Source: Squalus acanthias (Eukaryota). Taken from it: a stretch of DNA of 64,000 nt. The notes under the pieces are model-generated. The model saw nothing but the letters and a program-made list of their open reading frames with translations, ran no database searches and had not been told where the DNA came from. The position numbers and the translations under genes were made by a program. Positions 2,075 through 55,710 of the stretch are shown here, in pieces. Where the stretch lies: assembly GCA_030390025.1 (NCBI GenBank), contig CM059432.1, forward strand, positions 97,094,001-97,158,000, written 5' to 3'. Within the stretch, counting starts at the first letter, position 1. The number at the start of each line of letters is the position of its first letter.

Positions 2075-3612
2075 GCATGATTGGCCTGGTAGGACTTCCT
2101 CTGGGAATTGAACATGACTGGGAGAATGAAGAGAGGTCATGCAGAGCAGGACAAGCTTCTAGAAGAGGGAGGATGGGGAGAAGGGCTCTCAGCAGGAGGC
2201 CTTTTCTGCAGGGGGTCTTCAGGGAGCAATTCTCTTACCTCAATTAATGAGTACAGTAGCATAGTGGTTATGTTACTGGTACTCGTAATCCAGAGGCCTG
2301 GATTAATGATCTGGGAGACGTGAGTTTGAATCCCACCACAGGCAGATGGGGAATTTAAATTCAATTAAATAAATCTGAAATTAAAAACTAGTATTATGAA
2401 ACTACCAGATTGTCATAAAAACCCATCTGGTTCACCAATGTCCTCACCTGGTCTGGCCTATATGTGACTCCAGACCCACAGCAATGTGGTTGACTCTTAA
2501 CTGCCCTCTGTGGTTCAAGAAGGCAGCTCACCACCACCTTCTCAAGGGCAATTTGGGATGGGCAATAAATGCCAGCCTTGCCAGCGACGCCCACATCCCA
2601 TGAATGAATTTTTAAAAACTTCACCGAGGACCAGTGCTTGAGACGTCTTTGCTTCATGAAAGAGGTCGAGACTGAAATCTGTCAACTGCTGCAGCCACAA
2701 CTGCAACCTCAAAACAGGGCAAGGACAGCATTTCCTTTGGCTGTCAAGGTGCATCTGGCTCCTTTCAGGCTGCTGCTGGAGATACAAACAACATCTCAAA
2801 GTCTGCAGTGCACTGCTGTATAAGGGACATCACGGCAGCTCTCTAAACAAAGAGAAACTCATTCATCTCATTCCCTCTTGCCAGACACAAGCAGGAGGAG
2901 TGAGCATGAGGGTTTGCTTGGATTGCAGGCTTCCCCATGGTACAGGATACCATTGACTGTATGCACATTGCCTTGTGTGCGCCTCATGTGAACTCTGCCA
3001 TTTTCATGAACTGAAACGGATTCCACTCCCTCAATGTGCAGCTGGTGTGCGACCACAGGCAGCTCATCATGCAGGTAAATGCCCATTAACCTGGCAGCAG
3101 TCATGATTTCTTCATTCTGTCCTCTGTTCCACCTGTATTTGACCCACAACGGCAAGTCAAAGACTGGCAACTGGGCGACAAGGGTTATCTTCTCATGACA
3201 TGTCTCATGACATGGCTCATGACCCCAGTCCGGAACATACACAGCAAGCCCGGAATATACACAGCAAGCCTACAATAAGAGCCATGCTGCCACAAGGAAC
3301 ATTATAGAGCACACCATCAGCATCCCAAAGCAACACTTCCAGCACTCTGGAGGATCCCTGCAGTACGTGGCTGAGCAGGTATCAAGATTTGTGGATATAT
3401 GCTGTATGCTGCACAACCTTGTCAGTATGAGGTAACTGTCCTTGCCACCACCTATCAGGTGAGAAGCTGAGGAGCAGGAGCATGAGAACAAAGAAGAGGA
3501 GAGGAGGAAGTGCAACAGGAAATGGAGGAACAGGAAGAGGAAGGGAGGATACAATGTAGACAACCCCTTTCTGCCCAAGCTCTACATGATCACATTATTC
3601 ATGAGCAATACC
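2075..3612 (+). pseudogene. Harbinger (HARBI1-like) DDE transposase pseudogene
   Basis: Motifs [68 protein letters not shown]; stops, frameshifts and a SINE insertion. Confidence 0.85.
2250..2618 (+). mobile_element. tRNA-headed SINE made of the 5' head plus 3' tail of family B LINE
   Basis: A box TAGCATAGTGG, B-box-like GAGTTTGAATCCC; 2250-2510 matches ~8888-9176 and 2511-2618 matches ~12005-12110. Confidence 0.85.
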
Positions 3613-3829
3613 AGTAACCTCAACCACACCTCCCCACGCTCCTTACCTTTTCTCTATCACTGACTATCACATCCTCCTCTTTCTGACAACACAAAATTAA
3701 ACCCATCAGAAAATGAACATTCAAATCCAATTTTATAAATTCCCTCAGTAAATAATGCATACAAAATTAAACAAATCACTCTTGTGCATTCCCTTAGTGC
3801 CTGTCTTCCATGTGCCTTTGCCTATCCTA

Positions 3830-4835
3830 GTGCTCCTATGAGGTGCTTCCCCTGTGGCTGCAGCATGGGTGGTGGAAGGCTGCTGACCTTCAATTGAGGA
3901 GACTACAGATGGCCTTGGAGGACGACCTTGAGCAGCTCTGGGCCGAGAGGCCTGGCTTCAGACTGCGCCATCTCAGCTTGGGCTGCAGCTGTCTGGGCTG
4001 GCTGGCTGATAGGCAACAGCAAGGGCACTGACGGAGTGGTGGGGTGGGACCAAGGCATGCTGTCATTCTGAGAGAGGACAGCAGGTTCGTGCTCCATGGC
4101 ATCACTGACACTCTCCCAGAGCGGCACCTCAGCAATCCTACTGATCTGTTGAAGAACAGATTGATGAACTGCTGTGACACCCTGGAAGCCTCTTTGAACA
4201 GTGGTATCCAAAGCCATGATGGCAGCAGTCTGAGCTTTGGCTGAAGCACTCAGACCTTTGTTGGAAGCTGTTTGTGCTGCAATGAAACCGTGATATTGGC
4301 CATCAGATGCTGCATCATGTTGGGTTCCACAGGTGTGCTGATGGTGGTGACCAGCTGTTCCATGTTAGAAAGGATGGGCTCCAAGCTCTGCACAAAGTCC
4401 TGTGCCAAGTTCGTGCTGGAGTCCTCCATGCTCCTTGACATTGAGTAAGGGTATCTGGCAGGCTTTCCAGTGCACCAAGCATTTGGTTGTGTGGACTTCT
4501 TTTGTAGCCTGGCTCATCAAAGTCCTCATCTGACTCCTCTGCAGCAGAACGAGTGTGCGATCTCGCACCGCACAACAACCACCACCCCCCCGCCCCCCCA
4601 ACCCCCCGGCTAGCTGACACCTGTCCTATCCTTCCCCCCACCCTGGCTCCTGCGCACTTGTGTCCAGTGTCTCACCACGTGCTGATCCCTCCACTTTCCT
4701 AGCCTCTAAAGTACGCGCAGTGTCAGTGTCTGGGAGTGGCTGCAAGTGTAAGATCGAGTGACAGTGTCTCTTCATCTTCACTGCCTTCTTCCTCTTCCTC
4801 CTCTGACTGGGAAGCTTCCAGTTCTTGGGTATCTG
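3830..4835 (-). pseudogene. Last exon remnant of Harbinger Myb/SANT partner gene
   Basis: Peptides QSVLQQI and AVLSQNDS resemble QSVLQQI/AVLSHDDS in exon 3 of the intact gene at 30276-32095; minus-strand TTTCAG acceptor near 4833. Confidence 0.65.
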
Positions 4836-8564: not shown

Positions 8565-8887
8565 ATGATCTCCACTCTTTTTGTTGGGGGTTATCCAATT
8601 TAACCTCCTTTATGTTTGTGGGAGGAAGAAAAGACTTCGGCCGGAATTTTCTTTGGGGAGGCGGGTTAGGGCCAGGAGGGTCCAAGGCGGGCGGGAAACC
8701 CGGGAGGCCGTGCCGACTTTACTGGCAGGGCCTAATTTGAATGTGAGGCTTTGGATTCCTGCCCACAGCCAGCCAGCCTCTTGTGCATCCCTTTCCCCCT
8801 ACGCCCCACCATTGGTGGCCATTCCTAGGCCTTATGCTATACAATTCTCTCCCTAAGCCCCTACGCCTCTCAAATGTAGAAATGTAG

Positions 8888-8980
8888 GAACGGTAGTATA
8901 GTGGTTATGTTACTGGATTAGTTAATCCAGAGGCCTGGACTAATAAGCCTGAAACATGAGTTCAAATCCCACCATGGCAG
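8888..8980 (+). promoter_or_regulatory. tRNA-like internal Pol III promoter (A and B boxes) at LINE 5' end
   Basis: TAGTATAGTGG (A box), CTGGA...TCCAG anticodon-like stem, GAGTTCAAATCCC (B box). Confidence 0.7.
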
Positions 8981-11900
8981 CTGTGGCATTTAAATTCAGT
9001 TAATTAAATAAATCTAGAATAAAAAGTTTGCATGAAAAGGTGACCACGAAACTACCGAATTGTTGTATAAAACCCATCTGGTTCACTCATAAAGGAAATC
9101 TGCCGACTTTACCTGGTCTGGCCTATATGTGATTCCAGACCCACAGCAATGTGGTTGACTCTTAATTGTCCCTTTGAAATGGCCTAGCAAACCACTCAGT
9201 TGTAACAAAAAACAACAATAAGAATAAATCCGGACGGACCACCTGGCATCAACCTCGGCACCGGCTTTGGAAACGACAACAGCACATTCAGCTCAGTCGA
9301 TTCTGCAAAGTCCTCCTCACTAACATCTGGGGACTTGTGCCAAAATTGGGAGAGCTGTCCCACAGACTAGTCAAGCAAGAGCCTGACATAGTCATACTCA
9401 CAGAATCATACCTTTCTGCCAATGTCCTAGACACCTCCATCACCATCCCTGGGTATGTCCTGTCCCACCGGCAGGACAGCGTCACCAGAGGTGGCGGCAG
9501 ATTGGTATACAATAGGGAGGGAGTGGCCCTGGGGGTCCTCAACATTCACTCCGGATCCCATGAAGTGTCATGGCATCAGGTCAAACATGGGCAAGGAAAC
9601 CTCCTGCTGATTACCATCTACTGCCCTCCCTCAGCTGATGAATCAGTACTTCTCCATGCTGAACACCACTTAGAAGAAGCACTGAGAGGAGCAAGGGCAC
9701 AGAATGTACTCTGGGTGGGGGACGTCAATGTCCATCACCAAGAGTGGCTCGGTAGCACCGAGCTGGCCGCGTCCTGAAGGTCATAGCTGCCAGGCTGGGC
9801 CGGCAGCAGGTGGTGAGAGAACCAGCATGAGGGACAAACCTACTTGACCTCGTCCTCACCAATCTAATTGTTGCAGATGCATCTGTCCATGACAGTATTG
9901 GTAGCAGTGACCACCGCACAGTCCTTGTGGAGATGAAGTCCCGTCTTCACACTGAGGACACCCTCCATCGTGTTGTGTGGCACTACCACTGTGCTAAATG
10001 GGATAGATTCAGAACAGATCTAGCAACTCAAAACTGGGCAACCATGAGGCGCTGTGGGGCAGCAGCAGAATTGTATTCCACCACAATTTGTAACCTCATG
10101 GTCCGACATATCCCTCACTCTACTATAACCATCAAGCCAGGGGACCAACCCTGGTTCAATAAGGAGTGTAGAAGAGCATTCCAGGAGCAGCACCAGGCGT
10201 ACCTAAAAAGGAGGTGCCAGCCTGGGGAAGCTGCAACACAGAACTACATGCATGCTGAAAAGTGGAAGCAGCATGCTATAGACAGAGCTAAGCGATTCCA
10301 CAATCAACGGATCAGATCAAAGTTCTGCAGTCCTGCAACATCCAGTCGTGAATGGTGGAGGTCTATTTCACAACTAACGGGAGGAGGAGGCTCCATGAAT
10401 ATCCCCATCCTCAATGATGGTGGAGCCCAGCACGTGAGTGCAAAAGACAAGGCTGAAGCATTGGCAACCATCTTCAGCCAGAAGTGCCGAGTGGATGATT
10501 CATATCGGCCTCCTCCTGAGGTCCCCACCATCAAAGAAGCCAGTCTTCAGCCAATTCGTTTTCCTTCACGTGATATCAAGAAATGGCTGAGCGCACTGGA
10601 TACAGCAAAGGCTATGGACCCCGACAATATCCCGGCTGTCGTGCTGTAGACTTGTGCTCCAGAACTAGCTGCACCTCCAGCCAAGCTGTTCCAGCACAGC
10701 TACAACACTGGCATTTACCTGACCATGTGGAAAACTACCCAGATATGTCCTGTCCACAAAAAACAGGACAAATCCAATCCGGCCAATTACCACCCCATCA
10801 GCCTACTCTCAATCATCAGCAAAGTGATGAAAGGTGTTTGTCGACAGTTCTATCAAGTGGCACTTACTCACCAATAACCTGCTCACCGATGCTCAGTTTG
10901 GATTCCGCCGGGACCACTCGGTTCCAGACCTCATTACAGCCTTGGTCCAAACATGGACAAAGGAGCTGAATTCCAGAGGTGAGGTGAGAGTGACTGCCCT
11001 TGACATCACTGAAGCATTTGACCAAGTGTGGCTTCAAGGAGCCCTATTAAAATGAAGTCAATTGGAATCAGGGGAAAGAATCTCCACTGGCTGGAGTCAT
11101 ACCTAGCACAAAGGAAGATGATTGTGGTTGTTGGAGGCCAATCATCTCAGCCCCAGGAAATCGCTGCAGGAGTTCATCAGGGCAGTGTCTTAGGCCCAAC
11201 CATCTTCAGTTGCTTCATCAATGACCTTCCCTCCAACATTTGGTCAGAAGTGGGGATGTTTGCTGATGATTGCACAGTGTTCAGTTCCGTTCGCAATTTC
11301 TCAGATAATGAAGCAGTCCATGCCCGCATGCAACAAGACTTGGACGACATTCAGGCTTGGGCTGATAAGTGGCAAGTAACATTTGCGCCACACAAGTGCC
11401 AGGCAATGACTATCTCCAAGAGAACTTCTAACTGCCGCCCCTTGACATTCAACATCATTACCATTGCCGAATCCCTAACCATCAATATCCTGGGGGTCAC
11501 TATTGACCAGAAACGTAACTGGACCAGCCACATAAATACAGTGGCTACAAGAGCAGGTCAGAGGCTAGGTATTCTGCGGCGAGTGTCTCACCTCCTGACT
11601 CCCCAAATCCTTTCCACCATCTACAAGGCACAAGTCAGGAGTGTGATGGAATACTCTCCACTTGCCTGGATGAGTGCAGCACCAACAACACTCAAGAAGC
11701 TCGCCACCATCCAGGACAACACAGTCCGCTTGATTGGCACCCCATCCACCAATTAAACATTCACTCCCTCCACCACTGGCGTACCATGGCTACAGGGTGT
11801 ACCATCTACAAGATGCACTGCAGCAACTCGCCAAGGCTTCTTCAACAGCACCTCCCAAACCCGCGACCTCTTCCACCTAGAAGGACAAGTCACACACCAT

Positions 11901-12113
11901 CCTGACTTGGAAATATATCGCCGTTACTTCGTAGTCACTGGGTCAAAATCCCGGAACTCCCTCCCTAACAACGCTGTGGGAGTATCTTCACCACACGGAT
12001 GCAGCGGTTCAAGAAGGCGGCTCACCCCCACCTTCTCAAGGGCAGTTATGGATGGGAAATAAATGCTGGTTTGCCAGCAATGCCACATCCCTGGAACGAA
12101 TAAAAAAATAAAA
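8888..12113 (+). mobile_element. Full-length family B LINE (CR1/L2 group, APE-RT, no ORF1, tRNA-like head)
   Basis: APE motifs TNIWGL, DIVILTESY, VGDVN, SDH; RT motifs QFGF, QGSVLGP, FADD; A-rich 3' end; ORF broken by stops and frameshifts. Confidence 0.9.
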
Positions 12114-13767: not shown

Positions 13768-15589
13768 TGCATGCGAGTGCAAAAGACAAGGCTGAAGCAT
13801 TTGCAACCATCTTCAGCCAGAAGTGCCGAGTGGATGATCCATATCGGCCTCTTCCTGAGGTCCCCACCATCACAGAAGACAGTCTTCAGCCAATTCGATT
13901 CACTCCATGTGATATCAAGAAACGGCTGAGCACGCTGGATACAGCAAAGGCTATGAGCCCCGACAACATCCCGGCTGTCGTGCTGAAGACTTGTGTTCCA
14001 GAACTAGCTGCGCCTCTTGCCAAGCTGTTCCAGTACAGCTACAACACTGGCATCTACCCGACAATATGGAAAACTGCCCAGGTATGTCCTGCCCACAAAA
14101 AGCAGGACAAATCCAATCCGGCCAATTATCACCCCATCAGTCTACTCTCAATCATCAGCAAAGTGTTGGAAAGTTTTGTAGACAGTGCTATCAAGTGGCA
14201 CTTACTCACCAATAACCTGCTCACCGATGCTCAGTTTGGGTTCCACCAGGACCGCTCAGTTCCAGATCTTATTACAGCCTGGGTCCAAACATGGACAAAA
14301 GAGCTGAATTCCAGAGGTGAGGTGAGAGTGACTGCCTTTGACATCAAGGCAGCATTTGACAGAGTGTGGCATCAAGGAGCCCTAGTAAAATTGAAGTCAA
14401 TGGGAATCAGGGGGAAAATTCTCCACTGGTTGGAGTCATACCTAGTCCAAAGGAAGATGGTTGTAGTGGTTGGAGGTCAATCATCTCAGCCCCAGGACAT
14501 TGCTGTAGGAATTCCTCAGGGCAGTGTCCTCGGCCCAACCATCTTCAGCTGCTTCATTAATGAACTTACATCCATCATAAGGTCAGAAGTTGGGATGTTC
14601 GCTGATGATTGCACAGTGTTCAGTTCCATTCACAACTCCTAAGATAATGACGAAGGAGCAGCAGCTCCGAAAGCTTGTGATTTCAAATAAAACTGTTGGA
14701 CTATAACCTGGTGTTGTGCAACTTCTCATTTTTGTCCTAAGATAATGAGGCAGTCTATGCCCGCATGCAGCAAGATCTGGATGACATTCAGGCTTGGGCA
14801 AGTAACATTCGCGTCACACAAGTGCCAGGCAATGACTATCTCCAACAAGCGAGAGTCTAACCACCGCCCCTTGACATTCAACGGCATTACCATCACGGAA
14901 TCCCCCACCATCAACATCCGGGGGTCACCATTGACCAGAAATTTAACTGGACCAGCCACATAAATACTGTGGCCACAAGAGTAGGTCAGAGGCTGGGTAT
15001 TCTGTGGTGAGTGTCTCACCTCCTGACTCCCCAAAACCTTTCCACCATCTACAAGGCACAAATCAGGAGTGTGATGGAATACTCTCCACTTGCCTGGATG
15101 ATTGTAGCTTCAACAACACTCAAGAAGCTCAACACCATCCAGGACAAAGCAACCCGCTTGATTGTCACCCGATCCATCACCTTAAACATTCACTTCCTGC
15201 ACCACCGGCGCATCGTGGCTGCAGTGTGTACCATCTACAAGATGCACTGCAGCAACTCGCCAAGCCTTCTTTGGCAGCACCTCCCAAACCTGCGACCTCT
15301 ACCACCTAGAAGGACAAGGGCAGCAGGCGCATGGGAATACCATCACCTGAAAGTTCCCCATCAAGTCACACACCATCCTGACTTGGAAATATATCGCCAT
15401 TCCTTCATCGTCGCTGGGTCAAAATCCCAGAACTCCCACCCTAACAGCACTGTGGGAGTAACTTCACCACACAGACTGCACAGTTCAAGAAGGCTGCTCA
15501 CCACCACCTTCTCAAGGGCAATTAGGGATGGGCAATAAATGCTGGCCTTGCCAGCCACGCCCACATCCCAGGAACGAATACAAAAAAAA
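13768..15589 (+). mobile_element. 5'-truncated family B LINE
   Basis: SAKDKAEAF...QFGF...PQGSVLGP...FADD; 3' end GGAACGAATACAAAAAAAA; collinear with 10435-12110. Confidence 0.92.
14651..14734 (+). mobile_element. 84-bp Penelope pseudo-LTR fragment with 14-bp TSD
   Basis: Matches ~16849-16931; flanked by TCCTAAGATAATGA (14637-50, 14735-48). Confidence 0.88.
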
Positions 15590-16151
15590 CACAAATCACT
15601 AAAAGTATCGACACAGGTTAACAAGGCCATTAAAAAATCAAAACAAGCACCAGGGTTTATATCTAGAGCTATAGAATTGAAAAGTAGTGAATTTATGCTA
15701 AACTTGTATCGAACCTTGGTTAGACCACACTTGGCGTATTGCGTACAATTCTGGTCGCTATATTATCAAAAGGATATAGAGGCACTGGAGAGGGTGCAGA
15801 GAAGATTTACAAGCATGATAGCAGAAATGCAAGGGTATACCTATCAGGAAAGGATGAAAAGGCTGGGTCTCTTTTCTTTCGAAGAAAAGGCTGAGGGGTG
15901 ACCAAATAGAGGTCTTTAAAACCATGAAAGGTGTTGATAGATTAGATACAGAGAGAGTGTTTCCAGTTGTGGGGAAGAGCAAAGCTAGAGGCCATCAATA
16001 TAAGATAGTCAACAAGAAATCAGAAGTCGCACAACACCAGGTTATAGTCCAACAGTTTTATTTGAAATTACGAGCTTTCGGAGCTCTGCTCCTTCTTCAG
16101 GTACAGTGAGGGAATATAAATCTATTACACAGTATATATAGACAGAGAACA

Positions 16152-22500: not shown

Positions 22501-24027
22501 AAACCTTTTTAACTACTTTTTTATTTGAGATTTTAAACAATAAACAAAAAAACCTTACAAAATTGATCAAGCTAGAATAGTGATTATTGTGGGTTTATAT
22601 CCTAATTACCATTATGATTCAATAAATAATTTACACAACATCTTATTTTAATGAGTAGGCATTACTTCTCATTAGCAAAAAAAAGCAAATTGACCATTAA
22701 GCTTATTGTGACCTTAATACAATAAAGATGGGCTGCAGGCTTCAACAACAAGGGTTATTAAAGGTAAATTAAATTGGGATAGCTACAGAATACGGCAATA
22801 AGTGATAACACCCTTAAATACAGCTTTTAATAAATCACTTTTCTTATGAATAATTTATTTAGAAATGACAATAAAGTTCTTGAGAGGCTATTATACAAAA
22901 CAAATAATATAAATACTTTGAGTTCACATTAAAATTTATTTCCAGCTTGTTACATTGCTATTCTCTGTAGAAATAATGTTGGCTATCGTACTGTTTGTCT
23001 GCATGAAGGATACCTTGAGTATTATATCTATTTCTTCCACCTTAGTTAAGAAGATTGTGCATACTATAAGGTGACAAGAATACATTTCAAAAGAGAATTA
23101 ACTGTCTGGCAAAGAAGTTTGATGTTTGCTGCACTTCACAACAGGTATTTTGTGTGTTTTCTCAATTGATTCTAGATTATGCTCTTCTATTTAGCAAATG
23201 ACAGTGAGCTTCCATCTGTGATGGTTTGAGAACAAATGAGATTGTCTTTGATTAGTTTTTGCGTGTAGAAGTTTATGGAGTATATTTCAGTGGCAGGTAG
23301 AATTAGATGTAAATTATATATAGCTGACATTGTCTTCAAGAGATGAGATGGGACGTATCCAATTGTTGCAGGTAATGTGAGCAGCCACTTTATTAAAGCC
23401 ATTTTTGGATAAGGTCTTGTTTGAAGTGACTTAAAGGTAAGTAGATGTGTCCATCAGCTCTCCTGTATCCTATGTATGAATCTACACATGGCAGACCTCA
23501 ATGATTACAGTGGCTTCTGTAATTTGCTCAGAGAAAATGACTGTGACCATCATTCTGTCCATTTGATAGAAATGAGGCAAGGTTAACAGCAGCTGAAAAC
23601 CGATCTCCTTCAAACAGAAATATAGCTTGCAATTTGAATGGAAAATTGAATGCAATAATAAATTGAGAAGAATACACCCTTTGAATGCTGAAATCAATAA
23701 TATTCCATTCCAGTGGTTATTAATGCCAGCAGTAAAGGAAAGGAGAGATGGAGATGAGCATTAATTTGGGTTGTAGAAAATTACTGTTCAAGACAGGGGC
23801 AGTAATTGAAATGCCATTGATGAAAATAACCATCAGATACTGCCACTCAGGAGAAAATTATACCATGTGTCATTTTAATTATCGTAATGAGCCTTGCATT
23901 GATCAATTCTAAAGTATCGCACAAAATATTTAATTACATCACAATGAAAATTTGTTGCAATACTTACAACTTCAGTGACATTTTTAAATGTGTGTGCTCA
24001 CCATACTTTGCTGTATTTTGCTTGCCT

Positions 24028-27023
24028 TCCTTATCTGGTCTGGCCTATGTGTGACTCCAGACCGACAGCAATGTGGTTGACTCTTAACTGCCCTCTGAAA
24101 TGGCCTAGCAAGCCACTCAGTTGTAACAAACCGCTACGAAACACAATAGTAAGAAAGAAACCGGACGGACCACCCGGCATCGACTTTGGCACTGGCTACA
24201 GATAAGGCAACGGCACACCCAGCCCAGTCAACCCTGCTATGTCCTCCTCACCAACATCTGGGCACTTGTGCCAAAATTGGGAGAGCTGTCCCACAGACTA
24301 GTCAAGCAACAGCCTGACATAGTCATACTCACAGAATCATACCTTTCAGCCAATGTCCCAAACTCCTCCATCACCATCCCTGGGTATGTCCTGTCCCACC
24401 GGCAGGACAGAGCCACCAGGGGTGGTGGCACAGTGGTATACAGTCGGGAAGGAGTGGCCCTGGGAGTCCTCAACATTGACTCTGGACCCCATGAAGTCTC
24501 ATGGCTTCAGGTCAAGCAAAGCCAAGGAAACCTCCTGCTGATTACCACCTACAGCCCTCCCTCAGCTGATGAATCAGCACTACTCCATGTTGAACACCAC
24601 TTGGAAGAAGCACTGAGAGTAGCAAGGGCACAGAATTTACTCTGGGTGGGAGACTTCAATGTCCATCACCAAGAGTGGTTCGGTAGCACCACTACTGACT
24701 GAACTGGCTTAGTCCTGAGGGAAATAACTGCCAGTCTGGACCTGCGACAGGTGGTGAGAGAACCAACATGAGGAACAAACCTACTTGACCCCGTCCTCAC
24801 CAAGCTACCTGTCGCAGATGCATCTGTCCATGACATTGGTAGCAGTGACCACCGCATAGTCATTGTGGAGATGAAGTCCCATCTTCACACTGAGGACACC
24901 CTCCATCGTGTTGTGTGGCACTACCACCGTGCTAAATGGGATAGATTCAGAACCGATCTCGCAGCTCAAAACTGGACATCCATGAGGCGCTGTGGGCCAT
25001 CAGCAGCAGCAGAATTGTATTCCAGCATAATCTAACCTCATGGCCCGGCATATCCCTCACTCTATCATTACCATCAAGCCAGGGGACCAACCCTGGTTTA
25101 TTAAGGAGTGTAGAAAAGCATGCCAGGAGCAGCACCAGACATACCTAAAAATGAGGTGCCAACCTGGGGAAGCTGCAACACAGGACTACCTGCATGCTAA
25201 AAAGCGGAAGCAGCATGCTATTGACAGGGCTAAGTGATCTCACAATCAACGGATCAGATCAAAGCTCTGCAGTCCTGCCACATCCAGTCGTGAATGGTGG
25301 TGGACCATTAAACAACTAACGGGAGGAGGAGGCACCATGAATATTCCCATCCTCAATGATGGTGGAGCCTAGCACGTGAGTGCAAAAGACAAGGCTGAAG
25401 CATTGGCAACCATCTTCAGCCAGAAGTGCCGAGTGGATGATCCATCTCAGCCTCCTCCTGAGGTCCCCACTATCACAGAAGCCAGTCTGCAGTCAATTCG
25501 ATTCACTCCATGTGATATCAAGAAACGGCTGAGCGCACTGGATACAGCAAAGGCTATGGGCCCCGATAACATCCCGGCTGTCGTGCTGAAGACTTGTGCT
25601 CCAGAACTAGCTGCGCCTCTAGCCAAGCTCTTCCAGTACAGCTGCAAGACTAGCATCTATCCGACAATGTGGAAAACTACCCAGGTATGTCCTGTCCACA
25701 AAAAACAGGACAAATCCAATCCGGCCAATTACCACCCCATCAGTCTACTGTCAATCATCAGCAAAGTGATGGAAGGTGTCATCGACAGTGCTATCAAGCA
25801 GCACTTACTCAACAATAACCTGCTCACTGATGCCCAGTTTGGGTTCTGCCAAGACCACTTGGCTCCCGGCCTCATTACAGCCTTGATCCAAACATGGACA
25901 AAGGAGCTGAATTCCAGAGGTGAGGTGAGAGTGATTGCCCTTGACATCAAGGCAGCATTTGATCGAGTGTGGCATCAAGGAGCCCCAGTAAAACTGAAGT
26001 CAATGGGAATCGGGGGGAAATGCTCCACTGGCTGGAATCTTACCTAACACAAAGGAAGATGGTTGTGGTGATTGAAGGTCAATCATCACAGCCCCAGGAC
26101 ATCACTGCAGGAGTTCCTCAGGGCAGTGTCCTAGGCCCAACCATCTTCAGCTGCTTCATCAATGGCCTTCGCTCCAACATAAGGTCAGAAATGGGGATGT
26201 TCACTGATGATTGCACAGTTTTCAGCGCCATTCTCAACTCCTCAGATAATGAAGCAGTCCATGCCTGCATGCAACAAGATCTGGACGAGTCTAACCACCT
26301 CCCCTTGACATTCAACGGCATAACTATCGCTGAATCCCCCACCATCAACATCCTGGGGGGTCACCATTGACAAGAAACTTAACTGGACCAGTCACATAAA
26401 TACTGTGGCAACAAGAGCAGGTCAGAGGCTGGGTATTCTGTGGCGAGTGTCTCACCTCCTGACTCCCCAAAGCCTTTCCACCATCTACAAGGCACAAGTC
26501 AGGAGTGTGATGGAATACTCTCCACTTGCCTGGATGAGTGCAGCTCCAACAATACTCAAGAAGCTCGACACTATCCAGGACAAAGCAGCCAGCTTGATTG
26601 GCACCCCATCCACCACCTTAAACATTCACTCCCTCCATCACCGGCGTACCGTGGCTGCAGTGTGTACCATCTACAAGATGCACTGCAGCAACTCGCCAAA
26701 GCTTCTTCGGCAGCACCTCTCAAACCCGCAACCTCTTCCACCTAGAAGGACAAGGACAGCAGGCGCATGGGAACTGTACCACCTCCAATTCCCCTCCAAG
26801 TCACACACCATCCTGACTTTGAAGTATATCGCCGATCCTTCATCGTCGCTGGGTCAAAATCCTGGAACTCCCTATCTAACAGCACTGTGGGAGTACCTTC
26901 ACCACACGGACTGCAGCGGTTCAAGAAGGTGGCTCACCACCACCTTCTGAAGGGCAATTAGGGATGGGCAATAAATGCTGGCTTTGCCAGCGATGCCCAC
27001 ATCCCATAAACAAATTTTAAAAA
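24028..27023 (+). mobile_element. Near full-length family B LINE (tRNA head truncated)
   Basis: Collinear with 9110-12110; PKLGELSHRL, VGDFN, PQGSVLGP, FTDD; small deletion near 26288. Confidence 0.92.
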
Positions 27024-27454
27024 TTATTCAAGTCACGCTTATCTTACCTTCAATCCAAATCTTAACAACTTTTGTCTCCAATAATTTTCTTGCTGAACCT
27101 GAACCTAGATAACCTTTGAGCTGAACATATTGATTGAAACCAGGTCGATAAAGACATGGAAAGTTAATTGCTTAATAGCCTCTCTAGGCATTAAATAAAC
27201 TTGCAATCTCCTATGTGAATCATTACTGATAAAACTTCTTCCAACTGCATTAGTTCAAGTTCTGATTTGTGCAGATAATTTTTCAATACCGATTACCACA
27301 CCAAAACTGCTTAACTGTTACATCACATAATTGCTCGGCTGAGGACATAAGTAGTGAGTCACCAGCCTAAAGTGTTACATTTAGTAACATTTCTAAATTA
27401 ATAAACAACAACTTTACTGAGAGATTTGTTTACTGAAAGTGAATTAACATTTTA

Positions 27455-28270: not shown

Positions 28271-28305
28271 TCTACGTAAACTTACACTTTCCTTTCAGAG
28301 ATGTA

Positions 28306-29676
28306 TTTTTTTAAATTCGTTCCTGTGATATGGGTGTCGCTGGCAAGGCCAGCATTTATTGCCCATCCCTAAATGCCCTTGAGAAGGCAGTGGTAAGCCG
28401 CCATCTTGAAACGCTGCAGTCCATGTGGTGAAGGTACTCACATAGTGTCAAAGGTAGGGAGTTCCAGGATTTTGACCCAGCAACGATGAAGGAATGGTAC
28501 TATATTTCCAAGTCAGGATGGTGTGTGACTGGGAGGGAAATTGCAGATGATGGTGTTCCCATGCGCCTGCTGCCCTTGTCCATCTAGGTGGTAGAGGTTG
28601 CGGGTTTGGGAGGTGTTGTCGAAGAAGCCTTGGCGAGTTGCTGCAGTGCATCTTGTAGATGGTACACACTGCAGCCATGGTACGCCAGTGGTGGAGGGAG
28701 TGAATGTTTAAGCTGGTGGATGTGGTGCCAATCAAGCAGGCTGCTTTGTCCTGGATGGTGTCGAGCTTCTTGAGTATTGTTGAAGCTGCACTCACCCAGG
28801 CAAGTGCAGAGTATTCCATCACACTCCTGACTTGTGCCTTGCAGATTGTGGAAAGGCTTTGGGGAGTCAGAAGGTGAGACAATCACCGCAGAATACCCAG
28901 CCTCTGACCTGGTCTCGTAGCCACAGTATTTATGTGGCTGGTCCAGTTAAGTTTCTGGTCAATGGTGACCCCCAGGATGTTGATGGTAGGGAATTCGGTG
29001 ATGGTAATATGTTGAATGTCAAGGGGTGGTGGTTAGAGTCTCTCTTGTTGGAGATATTCATTGCCAGGCACTTGTTTGGCATGAATTTTACTTGCCACTT
29101 ATCAGCCCAAGCCTGAATGTTGTCCAGGTCTTGCTTATGCGGGCATGGACTGCTTCATTATCTGAGGAGTTGCGAATGGAACTGAACACTGTGCAATCAT
29201 CAGCGAACAGCCCCACTTCTGACATTATGATGGAGGGAAGGTCATTGATGAAGCAGCTGAAGATGGTTGGGCCTAGGACACTGACCTGAGGAACTCCTGC
29301 AGCGATGTCCTGGGGCTAAGATGATTGGCCTCCAACAACCACAACCATCTTCCTTTGTGCTAGGTATGACTCCAGCCAGTCAATAGTTTTCCCCCTGAAT
29401 TCCATTGACTTCAATTTTACTAGGGCTCCTTAATGCCACACTCGGTCAAATGCTGCCTTGATGTCAAGGGTAGTCACCTCATCTCGAGAGTTCAGCTCTT
29501 TTACCCATGTTTGCACCAAGGCTGTAATGAGGTCTGGAGCCGAGTAGTGATGGTGGAACCCAAACTGAGCATCGATGAGCAGTTTCTTATTGGTGAGTAA
29601 GTGAGGCTTGATAGCACTTTCGACGACACCTTCCATCACTTTGCTGATAATGGAGAGCAGACTGATGGGGCGGTAA
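28306..29676 (-). mobile_element. 5'-truncated family B LINE
   Basis: LDIKAAFDRVWH, SHLLTPQSLSTI; same 3' end as other copies. Confidence 0.9.
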
Positions 29677-30275
29677 CAGGGAGCTGCTCCATTGGACAGG
29701 CACCACTTAAACCGGGCCGGGACCAGTGTCCTGCTGAATCGAATAATCAGGGCTGTAGATAGGGCTTTAAACTAAAAAGGGGGGACGAGTCAGGTGAGGG
29801 GAAATTTAGAAATTTAAAGAGAAAAGTCAAGGCAATGGAGCAGTATATCGATTTGTGTAAAGATACTGTAGAATTCGCAAATTATCGCGATTTAAAAATA
29901 ATGAGAAAGAGAAATAGGGGGAGAAATTAGGTCGTGCCCCATTTGGGGCGCAAATATCGTCTGGACGCAAAAATTAGCGCCTGGCGCTAATTATCGCCAC
30001 TGACTGGAAACTTCACTTTTACCGCCCCGGGAGGTGAGTGGAGCGCTAAATCAGGCGCTGCACACCTGTCTTAAGGCGCAAAGGCCGAGCAGTGAGGCGC
30101 TAACTCAGCGCGCGAGCGCAGCGCAGCTGCTGCCAGTTAGCGAGGGAACACAGACATACTGGCGCCGGCCAGTTCTTAAAGGGGGGAGGGCCAACTTGCT
30201 CCCCAGCCACACCCTGCTCATTGCAGCCTTGAATCTCGGCCTGGAGAGACCTGTGAATTCATTTTGCTGCCAAGG

Positions 30276-32095
30276 ATGGAGAGGGTGAGAGAACGAGCTC
30301 AGCGCTTCACCGAGCGGTCCTTGGATGCTCTGGTTGGCGCGGTGGAGCGCAGAAGATCTATACTCTTCCCTGAGAGTGGCAGGAGGCCTTTGCCACGCGA
30401 GTACAGAAGAGTGTGGAGGGAGGTGGCTCAGAGCGTCTCCTCCAGGAGCATGGTGCCCAGGACCCATGTTCAATGCCGCAAAAAGTTTAACGACCTCACT
30501 CGGGTCGTCAGGGTGAGTGGCTTTTTCTCAATACCTCTCCATCCCTCCATCTCAACCTCACTCTATGGCCAGAGGGTCTTAAAACCCCAATGCACAACAC
30601 TCATCCAAAACCTATGGCCCTTTCATGAAACACACACACACATTCTACACTTTGCATACAGTAAGGGCTATTCACCTATGGGAGGCACATCAGGCAAGAC
30701 CATGGCTGTATACAGTAAGGGCTATTCACCTATGGGAGGCACATCAGGCAAGACCATGGCTGTATATTTACTCAGATGCTGTCCTTTTTCTTGCAGGCCA
30801 AGCTGGCGCATAATGGGAGACAGCAGCAACGGACAGGTGGAGGGCGGCCTCAGCTGCAACCCCTCAGCGATCTTGAGGAGCGCGTCCACAGGATTGTGGC
30901 AAGCCGGGTGATCGGTCCCGTCGCCACTGGAGACGCCGACCCCGTTCTGGACAGCAATGGTAAGGTCATCACCTTTTTGTCCTCTGTCCTTCCACTTGTC
31001 CCTCACAACACCAGCCTTTGACACTTTCAATCCAACTTACTAACTCGCTGCACTTATTCCTCCCTTACTGCCACCCTGTCCTCACGCTAAAGCCACTCTT
31101 GTACCTCCCTGCTTTCAGATGGTGATTCACCAGCTGAGGAGACGGGCCCTGAAGCTGCCAGTGGGAGTGAAGCTGCAGCCGAGGAGGAAGAGGAAGCTGG
31201 AGCATCAGTGCCACCCTCTCCCGAGGAAGCCCATGCCCACACTGGGAACACGCCTTCCCTGGAGGGGAGCAGGGGGGAAGGGTCTGATGAGGGTGAAGCT
31301 CCAGGACCCAGCGGGCTGCAGCAATGCCATGGGGGTAGGGAAGAACGGGGGCCTTCTCCCCAGAGGGAGAGTATGCCAGCAACTCCTACTGCAATGGACG
31401 CAGAGGAGGAGCGGCTGATCGCAGAAATGAACACCCAGGCGGTGGGCATGCACACTGAGCTCATGGGTGCAGTGGGAAGGGTGCCCGAATGCATTGAGTC
31501 ACTGGCAAGGAGTGTGGAGCACTTCGCTGTAGCACAGGCGGATGCCACACTAATGCTTAGTGCTGCAATTCAGTCACTGACTGCCGTGATCCCATCTCTG
31601 ACTGCTCTCATGCAGACTCAGATTGAGGCCACGCGAGCACTGACTGCTGCCAACCTCGATGGTTCGTTCACATGTCCCCGGGGCTCTCACCGCGCCGCAG
31701 CAGGCCAGCAATCTGTGCTCCAGCAGATTGCTCCGGATGCTGAAGTGCTGCCCCGTGGGAGTGCCAGTGTGTCGGTCGAGCAGGGAGTTGCTGTCCTCTC
31801 TCACGACGACAGCATTCCTGCTGCCAACACTGTCACTTCTCCACTGCACTTGCCACCGCCTGTAGGACAGACTGCTGCTGACCATGCAGAGTTGGTGCAG
31901 TCTGCAGCCGGGCCCTCCAGGCCCAGAACTGGTCGAGGCCGTCCTTCAGGGGCATCTGCAGTGTCAGGGTCTGACAATCAGCAGCCTTCCACCAGCCTTG
32001 CTGCAGCCACTGAGGTCCCATTACGGAGGAGCAGTAGGGTTAGAAGGGGGGAAGTGCGCAAGGGAAGGAGATCACCCTCGAAGGGCAAAAAGTAG
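30276..32095 (+). CDS. Myb/SANT-like (trihelix) DNA-binding partner protein, 3 exons (30276-30512, 30797-30959, 31119-32095), 458 aa
   Basis: RAQRFTERSLDALV...RRSILF...WREVAQSV...RTHVQCRKKFNDL, TGGG motif, basic C-terminus; GT-AG introns of phase 0 and 1 give one stop-free frame. Confidence 0.88.
30656..30763. repeat. Perfect 54-bp tandem duplication in intron 1
   Basis: 30656-30709 = 30710-30763. Confidence 0.95.
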
Positions 32096-32407
32096 GAGGT
32101 GTGACAAAATGCTGGTCATTTTTTTATTAAAGGCCGAGGTTCGTGGTCCAACTTTTGTCTAGTGTTTTGGACATTATCTCCAGGTTGTGAGAACCAGTTA
32201 TGTTAATGATTGTTTTTTTGTGTTTATTTCTATGAGTTTGTCATGAGGAAATGACACACACAGAGTTTGTAAAATAAATAAGTTTTTGTATTCAAAATAT
32301 ACATGTTTGGTGTTTGGAATCATTGGTGCCTTGGCCGGCTTAGGGGTTGCGTGCTGGGTTCATTGATGTTGTTAGCAATGGCAGAAGCCATTTCCACAGC
32401 AGGGGCC

Positions 32408-33566
32408 CTAGAAGCGGCTTGCTATCAGCCGTTGACGGACGGCCCTTGCAGTTTCACCATTGTGGGCCGCCCTCCCGCCTTGGTGCTTCTGATGATCATC
32501 CTCCTCGTCCTCTTCCTCCTCTTCCTCCTCCTCCTCTGGTGGTGCTACAAGGCCTGGTGGCATTGGCTGGGTCCTGACGATTGCCATGTTATGCAACATG
32601 CAGCACACAACTACGAAGTTGGATACTGGCTCAGGCGAGTACTGCAGGGCTCCTCCAGAATGGTCGAGACAGCGGAACGATTGCTTCAGCACGCCGATTG
32701 TGCGCTCAATGATGTTCCTGGTAGCTTGATGGCTCTCGTTGTACCGCAGCTCAGCAGGGGTGTTGGGCGTACGGAGCGGTGTCATCAGCCAGGTGCTCAA
32801 TGGATACCCCTTGTCCCCGAGAAGCCAACCAACTGGCTGATGCGGTGCCTCAAAGTTCTGCCACAGTAGTCTGGCGCAGGATGAAAGCATCGTGGCAGCT
32901 GCCAGGATAGTGGGCATTGACAGCGAGTATCAGCTGTCTGTGGTCACAGACCAACTGAACATTCAAGGAATGGAACCCCTTTCTGTTCCGGAATTCCTCG
33001 GCATTCTCATGTGGAGCACGCAAAGCCATATGCATGCAGTCAATGGCGCCCTGCACCATGGGGAAGCCCGCTATCCTCGCAAAGCCCCGAGCACGGTCAC
33101 GCTGCTTGTCTAGGGTCATGGGGAAAGAGATGAACTCTCGTCTCCTTTTAAAGAGGGCATTTGTGACCTGCCGGATGCAGCAATGCACCGCGAACTGGGA
33201 GATATTGGCGAGGTCCCCAGCAGCAGCTTGAAATGAGCAAGTAGCATAGAAGTTGAGAGCCACTGTGATCTTCACTGCCACCGACAGAGACGTCCTGGAC
33301 CTCAGTTGAGGCTGCAGATCTGGCTGCAGCAGGTGGCAGAGCTCAGTGACCACCTCCTTGCTGAATCGCAGCATTCGCAAACACAGCTCCTCAGACATAT
33401 GAATGTAGGAGAGCTGTTCACGATATACCCTGGGAGGGTAAGCTCTCCTGTACATACGCCTGTTGGCCCTCCTCCATCTGGCCATCATTGCCACTCTCTC
33501 TCTGCGTCTCTGTGTCCTCCGATTCAGCTGGAGCAGGACGACGCCCCCATTCGGTGCAGCCCCCAT
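32408..33566 (-). pseudogene. HARBI1-like DDE transposase with a single frameshift near 32852
   Basis: GAIDCMH, NRKGFHSLNVQ, PGSCHD | [24 protein letters not shown]; two ORFs overlap at AEL/FEAP. Confidence 0.92.
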
Positions 33567-35881
33567 AGTCTCTTTGCAAGCAAAGTTATGAAGGACAGCA
33601 ACCAAAGTACCAGCGAAGTTAGGATCAGTAGGCAAAACTACCTCACAAAGCGTTGACTCAATGCAGAAGTCTCTCTTTCTCTCTCTCCGAATCTCTCTCT
33701 CTCTCTCAGAACGAGTGGTGCAAAAATGTCAACCACAGAAAAAGACAGGACGAGGCCCCCTTTAAATAGTGCCCCCCCCCCCCAGCCCCACAGCGATTGA
33801 TAGTGTTCCAGTCTTCCGGTCGTTGGATGCGCCAGGCGGTAAGGCAGGGTGCGCCACTCAACTTCCGCTCCGGGGCGCTACAAGGGCGTTGCACCATGGA
33901 ATGACATCACAATCTGCGCGCGCAGGTGGTCGCGGAGGTAAAGTTTAGCGCCGCCGCACAATGTCTAGTTAAGTTCCCGAGCGGCGCAAACATCGCTGCG
34001 CCCGGGCGCTAGCGGCTTTGCGCTCCATTAGCGCCCTCTTAAGGCCCTAACGGGAGGCACAACCAACTGAATTTTTCCCCCATACAGTTTCGTAAACACA
34101 GCTTTATTTCTGCAAAATGCTGTCAGGTTTCAAAACGGACACAAGCAGCCTGTAAAATGGCCACCACGCCTCGTGGCAGAAGGTTCTAGACTTTCAGCAG
34201 GCAGACAAGATGGCGTTTCAATAAACATTTCAGCAAGATCGGACAGGACTCAGCATATTGAGATAAGGCAAGACGAGATCGTTTTGCATTTTAACACCCA
34301 AGCCAGGAATATAATTGCTGGAATCGGGTTTTTCCATGCACAAATGAGAGCTATTGTACTGGGCAATCAAGGGGCCCATCCAAAAGACATTGATACGCAA
34401 ATTCCCCACGGCTCTACGATGAGAGAGCCGTTCGCGGGTACTCATAGCAAGAATTTGGAGGCCCCCAAAACCCCTCCAGGGAGACTCCTAGCCAGTTCCA
34501 CAAGGGGAGAAATATTAACGGGTACTCAGACAGTTACAAGTATCACCGAAACCCATTAACAACAAGTACCACCCCATACAAGAAGTTTGAGCGCCAAAAC
34601 ATGACAAAAGATGGACATTAAGATTGGGCGGGAGATAAGGAATTACAGTACTATAACTGTAGTGTCCAAACGTCCATCTTTCTCTTATTCCTTTGACTCG
34701 CTTCTCTGATCCGTTGATTTTCCGGGAGTCAACCTCGTGGCTTGCCGCGAAGATCTGTGGAGAGCTGGTCTGCGAAGGCCTGAAAGTGGGCGCACCATCC
34801 CGAGAAGTCGGTAAACGGTGTTGGAACCGAAGGCCCGAGAGGAGATGAGATGAGATGAGATGAGAAGAGAAGAAGACGATTACACGTGCCGCCGCGGTCA
34901 GTAAACCCCGACCGCGCCCGAAAATCGATTAACCACTTCTTCGAATTCTATCGGCTACTCCACAACTGGCCCTGGAAGACTTTTCTTCGAGTTCTACTGA
35001 CAACTGGTGTTGGTCCAGAAAGACTCTTCTTTGAATTTTACCGGCTAACTGGTGTCGAGCACAGGAAGACTCTTCTTTGAGTTTTATCAGAGTTCCGAGG
35101 TCAACACAGATCTTCATGACAGCAGACGGTCCAGCCTGCTAGCCGGAGCAAAGCGAGTAAACAAGTGGGGTACAGGGACCCCTGATCAACCCGTGAATAG
35201 TCAGGTGCTGTGGTGAAAACATCCGAGCAGCGTTTCGGAATTCTCTGAGTTATCACGAGTGGTGAGCATGAGTCTCGATCCTACAGATCTAGATTAGGAC
35301 AGGTATTGATAGGGCAGGGTTTATGTTTTAAGGATAATTATAATGTGTGTCCCCTTTTACGATGTGTCGTGCGCTCCTCGTTTCCCTAAACCTAGTTGCA
35401 TAAATGTATGTAAGTTTGTACTGTCATTAATCTGTGCTTATGACATGTATTTCGTAATCTTGAATAATATGCAATAAAGATTTTCCATTTCGTACTATTC
35501 AACCGGGTCTACCTGAGTTTTCTCTGCATTATTGCTCTCGCACCTAAGTCCAGTGTCAGAACCGTAAGGGCGAGTGGGTCGAACCACTCACAGGTGTCTA
35601 GTGTTACCAGGCTGGCTGGAGACCAGAACAGGCAACAAGGCCTAACCCCGCACTAGCACCCAGGCTAAGCACAGAGCCACGCGAACCCCTTACAATAAGC
35701 AGAGTGTGCCAGGAAGGGACAGAGAGTTTAACGGTAATAGTGCATCAGCGAATAAGGTGAAAGCAGGGAATAATGGTAAAAAGTTAAAATTAAAGGCTTT
35801 TTATCTGAATGCATGAAGCATTCGTAACAAGGGATCTACAAGAAATTAAACCAGCCTAAATATAAATGCAACAGGAAATGA

Positions 35882-39465: not shown

Positions 39466-40149
39466 GTAATTGGCCGGATTGGATTTGTCCTGCTTTTTGT
39501 GGACAGGACATACCTGGGCAGTTTTCCACATTGTCAGGTAGATGCCAGTGTTGTAGCTGTACTGGAACAACTTGGCTAGAGGCATGGCTAGTTCTGGAGC
39601 ACAAGTCTTCAGCACGACAGCCGGGATGTTGTCAGGGCCCATAGCCTTTACTGTATCCAGCGTGCTCAGCCATTTCTTGATATCACGTGGAGTGAATCGA
39701 ATTGGCTGAAGACTAGTTTCTGTGATGGTGGGAACCTCAGGAGGAGGCCGAGATGGATCCTCTACTCCGCACTTCTGGCTGAAGATGGTTGCAAATGCTT
39801 CAGCCTTGTCTTTTGCACTCGTGTGCTGGGCTCTGTCATCATTGAGGATGGAGATGTTCATGGAGCCTCCTCCTCCCATTAGTTGTTTAATTGTCCACCA
39901 CCATTCACGACTGGATGTGGCAGGACTGCAGAGCTTTCATCTGATCCGTTGGTTATGGAATCGCGTAGCTCTGTCTAGCTTCCACTTTTTAGCATGCATG
40001 TAGTCCTGTGTTGCAACTTCCCTGGGTTGGCACCCCATTTTTAGGTACACCTGGTGCTGCTCCTGGCATGCTCTTCCACACTCCTCATTGAACCAAGGTT
40101 GGTCCCCTGGCTTGATGGTAATGTTAAAGTGAGGGATATGCTGGGCCAT
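39466..40149 (-). mobile_element. Internal fragment of family B LINE
   Basis: TIKPGDQPWFN...SAKDKAEAF...KSNPANY; abuts the CR1 tail. Confidence 0.88.
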
Positions 40150-50142: not shown

Positions 50143-51797
50143 GGCCCGGATTTTACAGTAAAGATAACGGTGAGGCTATCAACGTTCAACATTATTACGG
50201 AGAAAATCAGACAGCAACTGTCGGCGAGCGTACATGCGCAGTTAAATGTGGAAATCAGGAAGTTGCTGTCCTAGTTGCCCTGCTCCTCCAGAAGCTTTGC
50301 TCTCATCCAGAAACTTGCCATTCAAATACATGGAACATGTGAAGTTATGGTACTTACCCATTAGATACCTACTGAACTTGTCAGATCCATTCCAGTGTAA
50401 GTGAATTTTTAATGGTGTGGTACATCTTAATTACTGCTAAACAACCCCTCTGGCAGTGAAAATTAACTTTTACAAGTGTGGAGTCTGATTCCTACAGATT
50501 TAAATTATTGTTGTAGATTTAAAAAAATTAAAAATTAAAAAATTATTATTTTTACTTTTTCTTTCTGGCTCTTTTTCTCTCTCTCTTTTAATTCCATGTT
50601 TTATCCATCTCTTTTTCTCGCTTTCTGCACATGATTTGGCATTGAATTAAATATTCTAACTTACATTTGCTTGTTCAGACTCTGCGGGGGGAATTTTAAC
50701 CTCAAAAAAACAGGTGGATTGGCCCAACCTGCCTCCAACAAGCCCAATTCCAGTTTTAACGGAGGAAGAATGGGGGCGGGCAGCCAACCAGCTCCCAGAA
50801 GGCGGATCGGGCATTTAAATATTTTAATGAAGCTTGCATGCCTCATGGTTATCCACCATTCCAAATTTAACAGTGGCTGGTCGGGTTTCCCGGGCTTTGG
50901 TGAACCCACCAGCTAAAGGAAGGTAAGGACTGCTGGATCCAGGAGGTAAGTGCCTTTACAATTACCTCCTGGATCCAGCGTCCCTGTCTCACCAGCCCCC
51001 ACCCCACCCCCACTGTGATTGGATAGCTCCCTGAGGCCTCCGATCTGCGCCCCCCCCCCATGTATCCAATCCCCCCCCCCCCGCCACAAGGCCTCCGATC
51101 TTCCCCTGACCTCTCCTCGCCTGAAGCACCCGATCGCCTTTCCGGCCCCACTCACTGCAGCCCCGATGCTCCAGCGACCCCCAACCAACCACCACCTCCC
51201 CCCCCAACCAGGATGCTCCTCCGGCCTCTCTCCTCCAGCCCCAATGCTCCTCCGGCCTTCCTTCTCCAACCCCGATGCTCCTCCAACCCCCCACCCCATT
51301 GTCCTCCGGCCCTAGATCATCCTCTGGCTCCCCATTCCACCCCCGTTCCTCTTCCAGCCCCCGACCACACCACACCCCGCCCCCCAATCCGATTGCTCCC
51401 TCCACCCTCTCTGTGGCCTAGTGCCACAGGCCTATCCGACCGCAGGCAAGCAGTCTCTCCATTTGGCTGGCTGCAGGCGGCAATCGGTGCATTGAAATGC
51501 TAATCAGGTCTTGCCATTAAATTCGGCAGGACCTGCAGGTAACTCGTTCTCATGGGTTTCCCGTGCTTTCTAGCCACCCTGCTCCCGTTCCGCCTCTAGA
51601 TTAAAATTCCGGCCTGCGTGTCTCAGTAAGGATTCTTCAGTCTGATTGGTTACGGAGATACATAGTTGCTTGCCGTGTTCACACAGGTCCCAGATCCCCT
51701 GTAGAGGTCGCTCCGTCAAAGTGCTTTCGAATCACAGCACGTTCAAGTGCAAAGATCCACAGAAGGTCTATGGGTAACTACAAGTGCAATGAACGGC
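50143..51797. mobile_element. Outer Harbinger-type non-autonomous element, right end unclear
   Basis: Starts GGCCCGGATTTT; hosts the inner MITE and the duplication breakpoint. Confidence 0.55.
50686..51614. mobile_element. Harbinger-type MITE with C-rich core
   Basis: GGGGGGAATTTTAA / TTAAAATTCCGGCC; TSD TGC. Confidence 0.85.
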
Positions 51798-55061: not shown

Positions 55062-55371
55062 GTTTTATAGTGTTGATTGAGTGAGTAATATTGGCCAGGA
55101 GATCAGAAGATTCCCTGCTCTTCCTTTTTTAGGTCCTTGGAATAGTTGGCATCCACCTGAACTACTGGAACAGGCTGACAGCGCCTTAGTTTAATGTTTC
55201 ATCCACGTGAACTAGCAAAACAGTCAGATGGGTTTAATGTGTCCTCTTGCAGAGAGCCAGCACGGGCTCGACAGACCAAATGGCCTTCTACCATGCTGTA
55301 ACCATTCTATGATTCTATGATTCCAAAGACAAGATCACCATACATTTGATCAGTAAACTAGGCTAACACTT

Positions 55372-55704
55372 CAGTGAAGTACTGTAGGAGTGCTACATTA
55401 TTGGAGGAGCTCTCTTTTGGATGGGACATTAAACCAAGGCCTTGTTTGCAATCTCGGGTGCATATAAAAGATCCCATGGCAACATTCAAAGAAGAGTTTT
55501 CCCAGTATCCTGGCCAACATTTATCCCTCAACCAACATCACTAAATACAGATTATCTGGTCATTTATCATATTGCTATTTGTTGTGCACAAAGTGTCTGC
55601 TACTTTTCCCTACATTATAAAAATGACTACACTTGAAGAACACCTCATTGCTGGAAAGCATTTTGGGACATCCTGAAAGGTGCTATATAAATGCAGCTTC
55701 TTTC
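55372..55704 (+). mobile_element. Degenerate SINE body and tail with L2-like 3' end
   Basis: Ends TGAAAGGTGCTATATAAATGCAGCTTCTTTC; related minus-strand copy at ~53835-54003. Confidence 0.6.
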
Positions 55705-55710
55705 TTCTTT

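Follow-up and report, generated by a model that had tools for sequence, protein, structure and literature searches.

LINEs and SINEs are usually kept apart by two properties, LINEs being coding and transcribed by RNA polymerase II (Pol II) and SINEs being non-coding and transcribed by RNA polymerase III (Pol III), which terminates at runs of four or more thymidines (T4). L2 elements without an ORF1 exist, uncapped R2 RNA undergoes non-AUG translation, and translated Pol III RNAs have been reported. According to the bipartite model of non-autonomous elements, as far as it is set out in the available part of PMC5786205, a tRNA head joins a deleted element later and the autonomous LINE remains a Pol II transcript. 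Persaeus, a short element, carries the 5' end of the lepidopteran LINE Zenon and, in the accessible part of its description, has neither tRNA homology nor a Pol III promoter (PMC6740152). In a mammalian assay, as excerpted from PMC2666806, Pol III transcripts were retrotransposed without ORF1p, whereas a Pol II-driven Alu needed it.

Here, we analyzed a 64,000-nucleotide stretch of the Squalus acanthias genome (contig CM059432.1, positions 97,094,001 to 97,158,000, forward strand), referred to as the window, which holds an autonomous-type LINE that itself begins with a tRNA-derived head. In the titles and abstract openings listed by our literature searches, a tRNA-headed autonomous LINE is not described; Repbase, Dfam and most subscription journals lay outside this search, and it is quite possible that so abundant a family already has a database entry.

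The LINE family and its tRNA-derived 5' end

The element at 8886-12113 on the plus strand is a degenerate member of an abundant LINE family, 3.3 kb in length, with a single frame encoding an endonuclease (APE) and a reverse transcriptase (RT), both of which are recognized by Pfam in this copy. The copy is dead, with several stop codons and frameshifts, and is 92.7% identical to the family majority, compared with 93-97% for the other copies. The family alignment comprises the window copy and 28 of the 40 fetched copies, the other 12 having been excluded because of large indels or rearrangements. As in other LINEs, APE and RT share one frame, dispersed copies are 5'-truncated and the tail is A-rich or made of repeats. 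Four further long pieces and a short form of the family also lie in the window (Table 1).

Table 1. Positions in the window of the 8886-12113 element, its parts and the related copies
Feature	Position	Strand	Basis or remark
tRNA-Thr(AGT)-derived head	8886..8977	+	tRNA alignment; full-length copies start here
A box of the head	8894-8904	+	sequence
Anticodon-like arm of the head	8913-8930	+	sequence
Anticodon arm, second copy	8935-8951	+	sequence
B box of the head	8960-8969	+	sequence
Non-coding leader body, common to long and short forms	8978..9204	+	several out-of-frame or very short upstream ATGs
Single APE-RT frame, broken by stops and frameshifts in this copy	9205..12046	+	Pfam, family alignment
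Basic N-terminal stretch at the start of the APE-RT frame	within 9205..12046	+	translation
Endonuclease motif	from about 9322	+	within the APE-RT frame
RT motif FADD	11259-11270	+	within the APE-RT frame
Short 3' UTR, stem-loop and A-rich tail	12047..12113	+	folding of the family majority
Short non-autonomous form, with head and leader fused directly to the final ~100 nt of the LINE	2249..2620	+	one of several junction types that were amplified
Second long copy, with its 5' truncation in the leader	24023..27030	+	repeat comparison, Pfam
5'-truncated copy, interrupted near 14650-14737	13769..15590	+	repeat comparison, Pfam
5'-truncated copy	28304..29676	-	repeat comparison
Internal fragment of the tRNA-headed LINE family	39466..40149	-	repeat comparison

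In 60 arbitrarily chosen stretches of 10 kb at round coordinates (600 kb in all) of this 3.7-Gb genome, the family covers about 3.7% of the sequence (matches may overlap) and contributes about 20 3' ends. Leader sequence occurs in six elements of the sample: three short forms, two elements that continue into the endonuclease and one that skips to the middle of the ORF. Contigs of four other organisms cover the whole element and also contain head-to-tail joints, so the family occurs outside the S. acanthias genome as well. Contig sets from four sequencing runs, guessed to be RNA, cover 30 of the 30 element bins and are uninformative on start, strand and level. At two loci (L121:1-122 and L127:1-179), family tails directly or closely precede the 5' end of another copy, which hints at tandem or preferential insertion.

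The first 92 nt of the element can be aligned from end to end with tRNA-Thr(AGT) genes of the same genome when an insertion of ~20 nt is allowed; the inserted nucleotides repeat the anticodon arm. The alignment score is 58 against one gene (L371; maximum in 500 shuffles, 50.6) and only 52.4 against another (L373; shuffle maximum, 50.7). The A and B boxes fit the consensus. A head with these two boxes, a feature of tRNA-derived SINEs (SINE2), is present here in a LINE, and the A box, anticodon-like arm and B box noticed in a preliminary description of this DNA, made from the sequence alone, are borne out. The duplicated arm and the short form at about 2249-2620 were missing from that description. 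Neither ARAGORN nor Rfam calls the head, probably because the anticodon arm is duplicated; Rfam finds nothing near threshold in the leader, ribozymes included, and folding of the leader is not unusual (z between -2.0 and +0.5).

The head is the fixed 5' end of the LINE family. With a query consisting of the endonuclease only, taken from a different copy, 30 loci were retrieved, 29 of which extend upstream into the same leader with scattered breakpoints, and nine of which reach its first bases (eight independent, two being a local duplicate, and two with internal deletions). The 400-bp upstream flanks share no sequence abutting the element, the local duplicate aside, and no longer copy with an ORF1 is found among these loci, in line with the ORF1-less structure first proposed. 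With a leader-biased query, 12 of 29 non-self loci start within 10 bp of 8888. Genome-wide, an exact two-motif pattern of leader plus LINE-specific sequence has 1,952 matches, compared with none for the reversed control, so the head is not limited to a few chimeric copies. Long and short copies share the start base, 8 nt before the A box, and the recurrence of the leader in the second long copy, previously placed at 24028, was found at 24023. Further downstream, the first 360 nt of the element contain three AATAAA motifs, and family nt 330-470 form a CpG-rich stretch (O/E 1.2), a possible Pol II element that the short forms lack and that codes for an Arg-rich peptide.

The leader was compared with three SINE domains, Deu, Meta and UCON3, and matches none of them. 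A Deu motif from PMC7245038 is absent from the element, about 10 nt of which resemble the Deu start by eye, and no significant similarity links the element to the Deu-like SINE of the window (best E 0.07). The sequence after the head does not match the published Meta (PMC4824008) and UCON3 domains by eye. The Deu-domain SINE of the window, at about 55400-55700 with a duplicate near 62300-62600, is probably SacSINE1-like and is unrelated to the LINE. The window also contains a 6.6-kb near-tandem duplication (50562-57127 and 57413-64000, 99.1% identity, reaching the window end), which is either recent or an assembly artefact, and, at 30180-33728, a Myb/SANT-like frame (+) and a DDE_Tnp_4 frame (-) arranged as in a Harbinger-type DNA transposon, with related DNA at 2626-4174.

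No tRNA head was seen in relatives at 120 metagenome or MAG loci, which are distant (23-44%), in many cases have no 5' end and give only noise in relaxed ARAGORN output; viral contigs yielded no tRNA-headed relatives. Animal-type LINE ORFs in contigs labelled as bacterial MAGs (L271-L310) are most likely host contamination.

Depletion of T-runs, coding frame and 3' end

The preliminary description counted one T4 in each of three copies and considered the consensus apparently T4-free. The runs at 10559 and 26219 are as reported, the one given at 14164 lies at 14174, and there are extra runs at 14729, in a stretch that does not align, and at 27015, in the tail. T4 is indeed absent from the majority sequence of the 29 aligned copies, 18 of which have no T4 at all, the others having private or tail runs. 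Zero T4 by itself is only marginally beyond chance, with 3.95 expected from base shuffles (P 0.017), 1.43 from dinucleotide shuffles (P 0.20) and 1.86 from synonymous permutation (P 0.12). The suggestion that T-runs are rarer than in shuffles and in CR1s thus holds for T-runs in general and does not hold for T4 alone against dinucleotide or codon shuffles. With protein and codon usage fixed, 5 T3 runs are observed against 11.2 expected (P 0.0045) and one word with four Ts in five positions against 5.5 (P 0.02; 6.9 expected from dinucleotide shuffles, P 0.01). A4 runs are not depleted in the codon-fixed test, and the depletion concerns sense-strand T-runs only. At synonymous sites, T occupies 5 of 60 positions where a run of at least three would form (19.1 expected) and 0 of 6 positions where a run of four would form, and no such avoidance is seen for C, A or G runs.

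Two co-resident CR1 families served as controls that are distant from the family and of differing composition, rather than close head-less relatives; their majorities (27 and 29 copies) contain 8 and 13 T4 in ORFs of 2.1 and 2.5 kb. At run-forming synonymous sites they show a mild deficit of T (34/77 with 42.2 expected, P 0.04; 36/87 with 43.9 expected, P 0.056), and CpG decay may inflate the expected T rate in the LINE family and in both CR1s. The 28 family pieces of the 600-kb sample (20.8 kb) contain 8 T4 (0.38 per kb), a number that rises to 32 when each piece is shuffled once; CR1-like pieces have 3.4 and 4.6 per kb, so that T4 runs are about tenfold fewer in the family copies than in the co-resident CR1s. 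A second set of 71 family pieces has 19 T4, compared with 127 when shuffled. An older sister family was considered as a close control and rejected: the diverged pieces L330 and L098 have best matches of 71-82%, and the 29 checked loci of the first query belong to the main family at 89-96%. One CR1 family of the classical type (L025:330-650 and L241-L270) is very young and probably active now, as every one of its 40 scored matches shows 100% identity across 321 bp.

The observed-to-expected ratios of the family are 0.31 for T3 and 0.11 for four-in-five-T words, whereas the lowest values among 98 RT frames of at least 500 aa, drawn from the 120 distant loci and not mutually independent, are 0.72 and 0.80. 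One of these frames, on a metagenome contig (L185, 912 aa), has zero T4 against 5.7 expected, with normal T3 and with its 5' end off the contig. The TT dinucleotide is depleted in the family as well (O/E 0.71), which could reflect a general compositional bias.

The family majority has one frame of 973 codons from nt 330. An APE-RT frame some 350 bp behind the head had been proposed; Pfam confirms the frame, while the distance needs correction, as the endonuclease motif lies ~435 bp after the head start. The frame has no in-frame AUG before the endonuclease, its first Met being residue 286, as had been suspected. The leader of the majority contains 8 ATGs, none of which opens the main frame, a poor fit with cap-dependent scanning. 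The frame start is rich in Lys and Arg, and so is that of P0001, the best homologue, in which the Met precedes the endonuclease Asn by 37 residues. In the family, codon 39 before this Asn is ACG in 22, ACA in 17 and ATG in 8 of 64 copies, 17 being unparsed, and the ATG variants are scattered across copy clusters. Such a spread is the CpG decay pattern expected from ACG and makes this ACG a candidate translation start, judged from codon variation among copies; the 8886-12113 copy has lost this position through a 10-nt deletion. Further downstream, 11 of 63 copies share a 3-nt indel that leaves the frame intact, which is weak evidence since the indel lies in an AAT repeat. A separate upstream frame of 76 codons, opened by an ATG at family nt 274, runs in another register across the main-frame start (family nt 274-504; window 9205-9325), and by eye it contains no canonical slippery site.

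At the 3' end, the UTR of the family majority forms a stem-loop with a z of about -3, and the 8886-12113 copy has no clear target-site duplication. T4 or longer runs occur at a fixed site before the A tail in 9 of 68 tails. We rejected these as a built-in terminator, because their length distribution is no different from that of AA-T(n)-A4 sites in the genome (Fisher P 0.20-0.54), and slippage of the same kind is seen at an internal site.

Short forms and the transcription of the family

Two leader-to-tail junction patterns have 649 and 403 exact matches genome-wide. Among the matches listed, several junctions recur, some of them at short shared sequences, alongside many one-offs. The head with the same duplicated arm begins 29 of 40 fetched short forms, and in some short forms, L365 among them, bases continue into the LINE-specific part. 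We infer from these junctions that the short forms arose by repeated internal deletion of the LINE, followed by amplification. Since the head-plus-tail forms were amplified separately, a sufficient promoter would lie within the first ~300 nt. The short forms are short and non-coding like SINE2 elements, whereas the long form encodes APE-RT. The short form may resemble AmnSINE2.

On this sequence evidence we lean slightly towards Pol III transcribing the full element, from which terminators have been purged, with the RNA being translated without cap or AUG. TFIIIC would bind the A and B boxes, and Pol III would start just upstream of the A box, read through owing to the selective loss of terminators and end at a T-run in the flank. 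Cap-independent translation would begin at the ACG or nearby, and the protein would recognize the 3' stem-loop and insert a copy by target-primed reverse transcription. Template jumps during reverse transcription would give rise to the short forms, which retain promoter and tail and would thus behave as SINEs. The complete picture of a Pol III-transcribed 3.3-kb mRNA with cap- and AUG-free translation and of SINEs born by internal deletion, the reverse of the model in which the head is added later, is one on which we are evenly divided.

One objection, that a SINE inserted by chance or a single SINE-LINE chimera accounts for the head at the 8886 locus, could draw on the short head-plus-tail repeat in the same window; the same leader upstream of 29 of 30 endonuclease-selected loci with unrelated flanks, together with the 1,952 exact junction matches, refutes it, and we give it practically no credence. 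A more serious alternative, which we judge unlikely though credible, is that a SINE head was captured long ago and that the LINE is transcribed by Pol II from leader elements or by host read-through, the A and B boxes driving only the short forms and the poverty in T stemming from a compositional bias or from avoiding U-rich signals for cleavage or decay. LINEs are generally regarded as Pol II transcripts (PMC5786205), and the lepidopteran Zenon leader is described as non-tRNA (PMC6740152). The generally low TT content points the same way, and it is textbook knowledge that a translated RNA normally needs a cap. The CpG-rich stretch would be a natural place for a Pol II element, but it is missing from the short forms and codes for the Arg-rich peptide. 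This alternative also has to accommodate that the co-resident CR1s do not avoid T4, that long and short copies start at the same base just before the A box, and that a capped transcript would present upstream ATGs and AATAAA motifs in its first 360 nt and no in-frame AUG.

Both polymerases might be used, with Pol III RNA being reverse-transcribed and the protein supplied in trans by another, capped transcript made by Pol II or by read-through. Such a division would explain the avoidance of T-runs and the many successful short forms without translation of an uncapped RNA. However, the capped RNA would still require a non-canonical start, and strong trans action should favour short forms, yet the long-form pattern has more matches than either short-form pattern of similar length (1,952 against 649 and 403); we regard this arrangement as improbable. 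Returning to Pol III transcription of the whole element, the initial idea of a SINE-headed LINE selected against Pol III terminators is partly supported, by the head and the T-run depletion and not by the missing ORF1. If it is true, a family of tens of thousands of copies would straddle the usual split between LINEs and SINEs, would provide a natural Pol III mRNA of >3 kb on which translation without cap or AUG could be tested, and would offer a direct route by which the head, body and tail of a SINE arise together from one LINE. If Pol II is used instead, the family is still an unusual LINE with a captured SINE head.

Comparison with Zenon, CR1 and known SINEs

The best full-length homologues of the family protein are mostly APE-RT proteins of 930-1,020 aa with 35-40% identity, on contigs of about 3.1-5 kb, a size that suggests single-ORF relatives; a shark protein fragment (P0116) is 80% identical over 31% of the query. 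In a quick tree of 69 RT regions, built without named Zenon references and with long branches that make deep placement unsure, the element falls in a clade of 54 rows with an SH-aLRT support of 99, far from the two resident CR1s. This clade includes a metagenome element (L137; 35% identity over 612 aa) whose motifs fit the printed Zenon-1_Hmel by eye. The family is probably Zenon-type. Zenon is described as having about 3.3 kb, one APE-RT ORF, a short leader and a poly(A) end, as in the shark family, and by eye Zenon-1_Hmel and Zenon-1_PXu look like our family in their endonuclease motifs, in their C-terminal motifs and in the DNA where the ORF ends (PMC6740152). The vertebrate CR1s, represented by the two co-resident families, are APE-RT LINEs too, but share ~30% identity over the RT core and occupy a separate long branch, and their classical ORF1 upstream of APE-RT is absent from the family; in protein motifs and 3' end the family is nearer to Zenon than to vertebrate CR1. 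The lack of ORF1, once read as a sign of Pol III, is normal in Zenon-type relatives and is therefore an inherited, ordinary trait that gives no evidence for Pol III.

Zenon also gives rise to internally deleted short forms, such as Persaeus (PMC6740152). Zenon-1_Hmel differs from the shark family by an annotated ATG start and several runs of T4 or longer in its printed sequence, and the tRNA-derived 5' end of the shark LINE has its counterpart in a leader that this source presents as non-tRNA (PMC6740152). The head, the missing AUG and the avoidance of T-runs are what sets the family apart from Zenon. Among cartilaginous-fish SINEs, SacSINE1 (Deu), CmiSINE (CORE) and HE1 (V) are built like the short forms, with an A/B-box tRNA head, then a body, then a tail taken from a LINE; as described in PMC5499810 and PMC3747384, they share only the tail with their LINE, whereas in the shark family the LINE itself has the head and body as its 5' end. 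The short forms also resemble the bipartite non-autonomous LINEs and SINEs reported for RTE and Vingi, in which a 5' part and a 3' part of the LINE are joined by internal deletion (PMC5786205, in part). In contrast to the bipartite model, the autonomous element of the shark family itself already bears the head.
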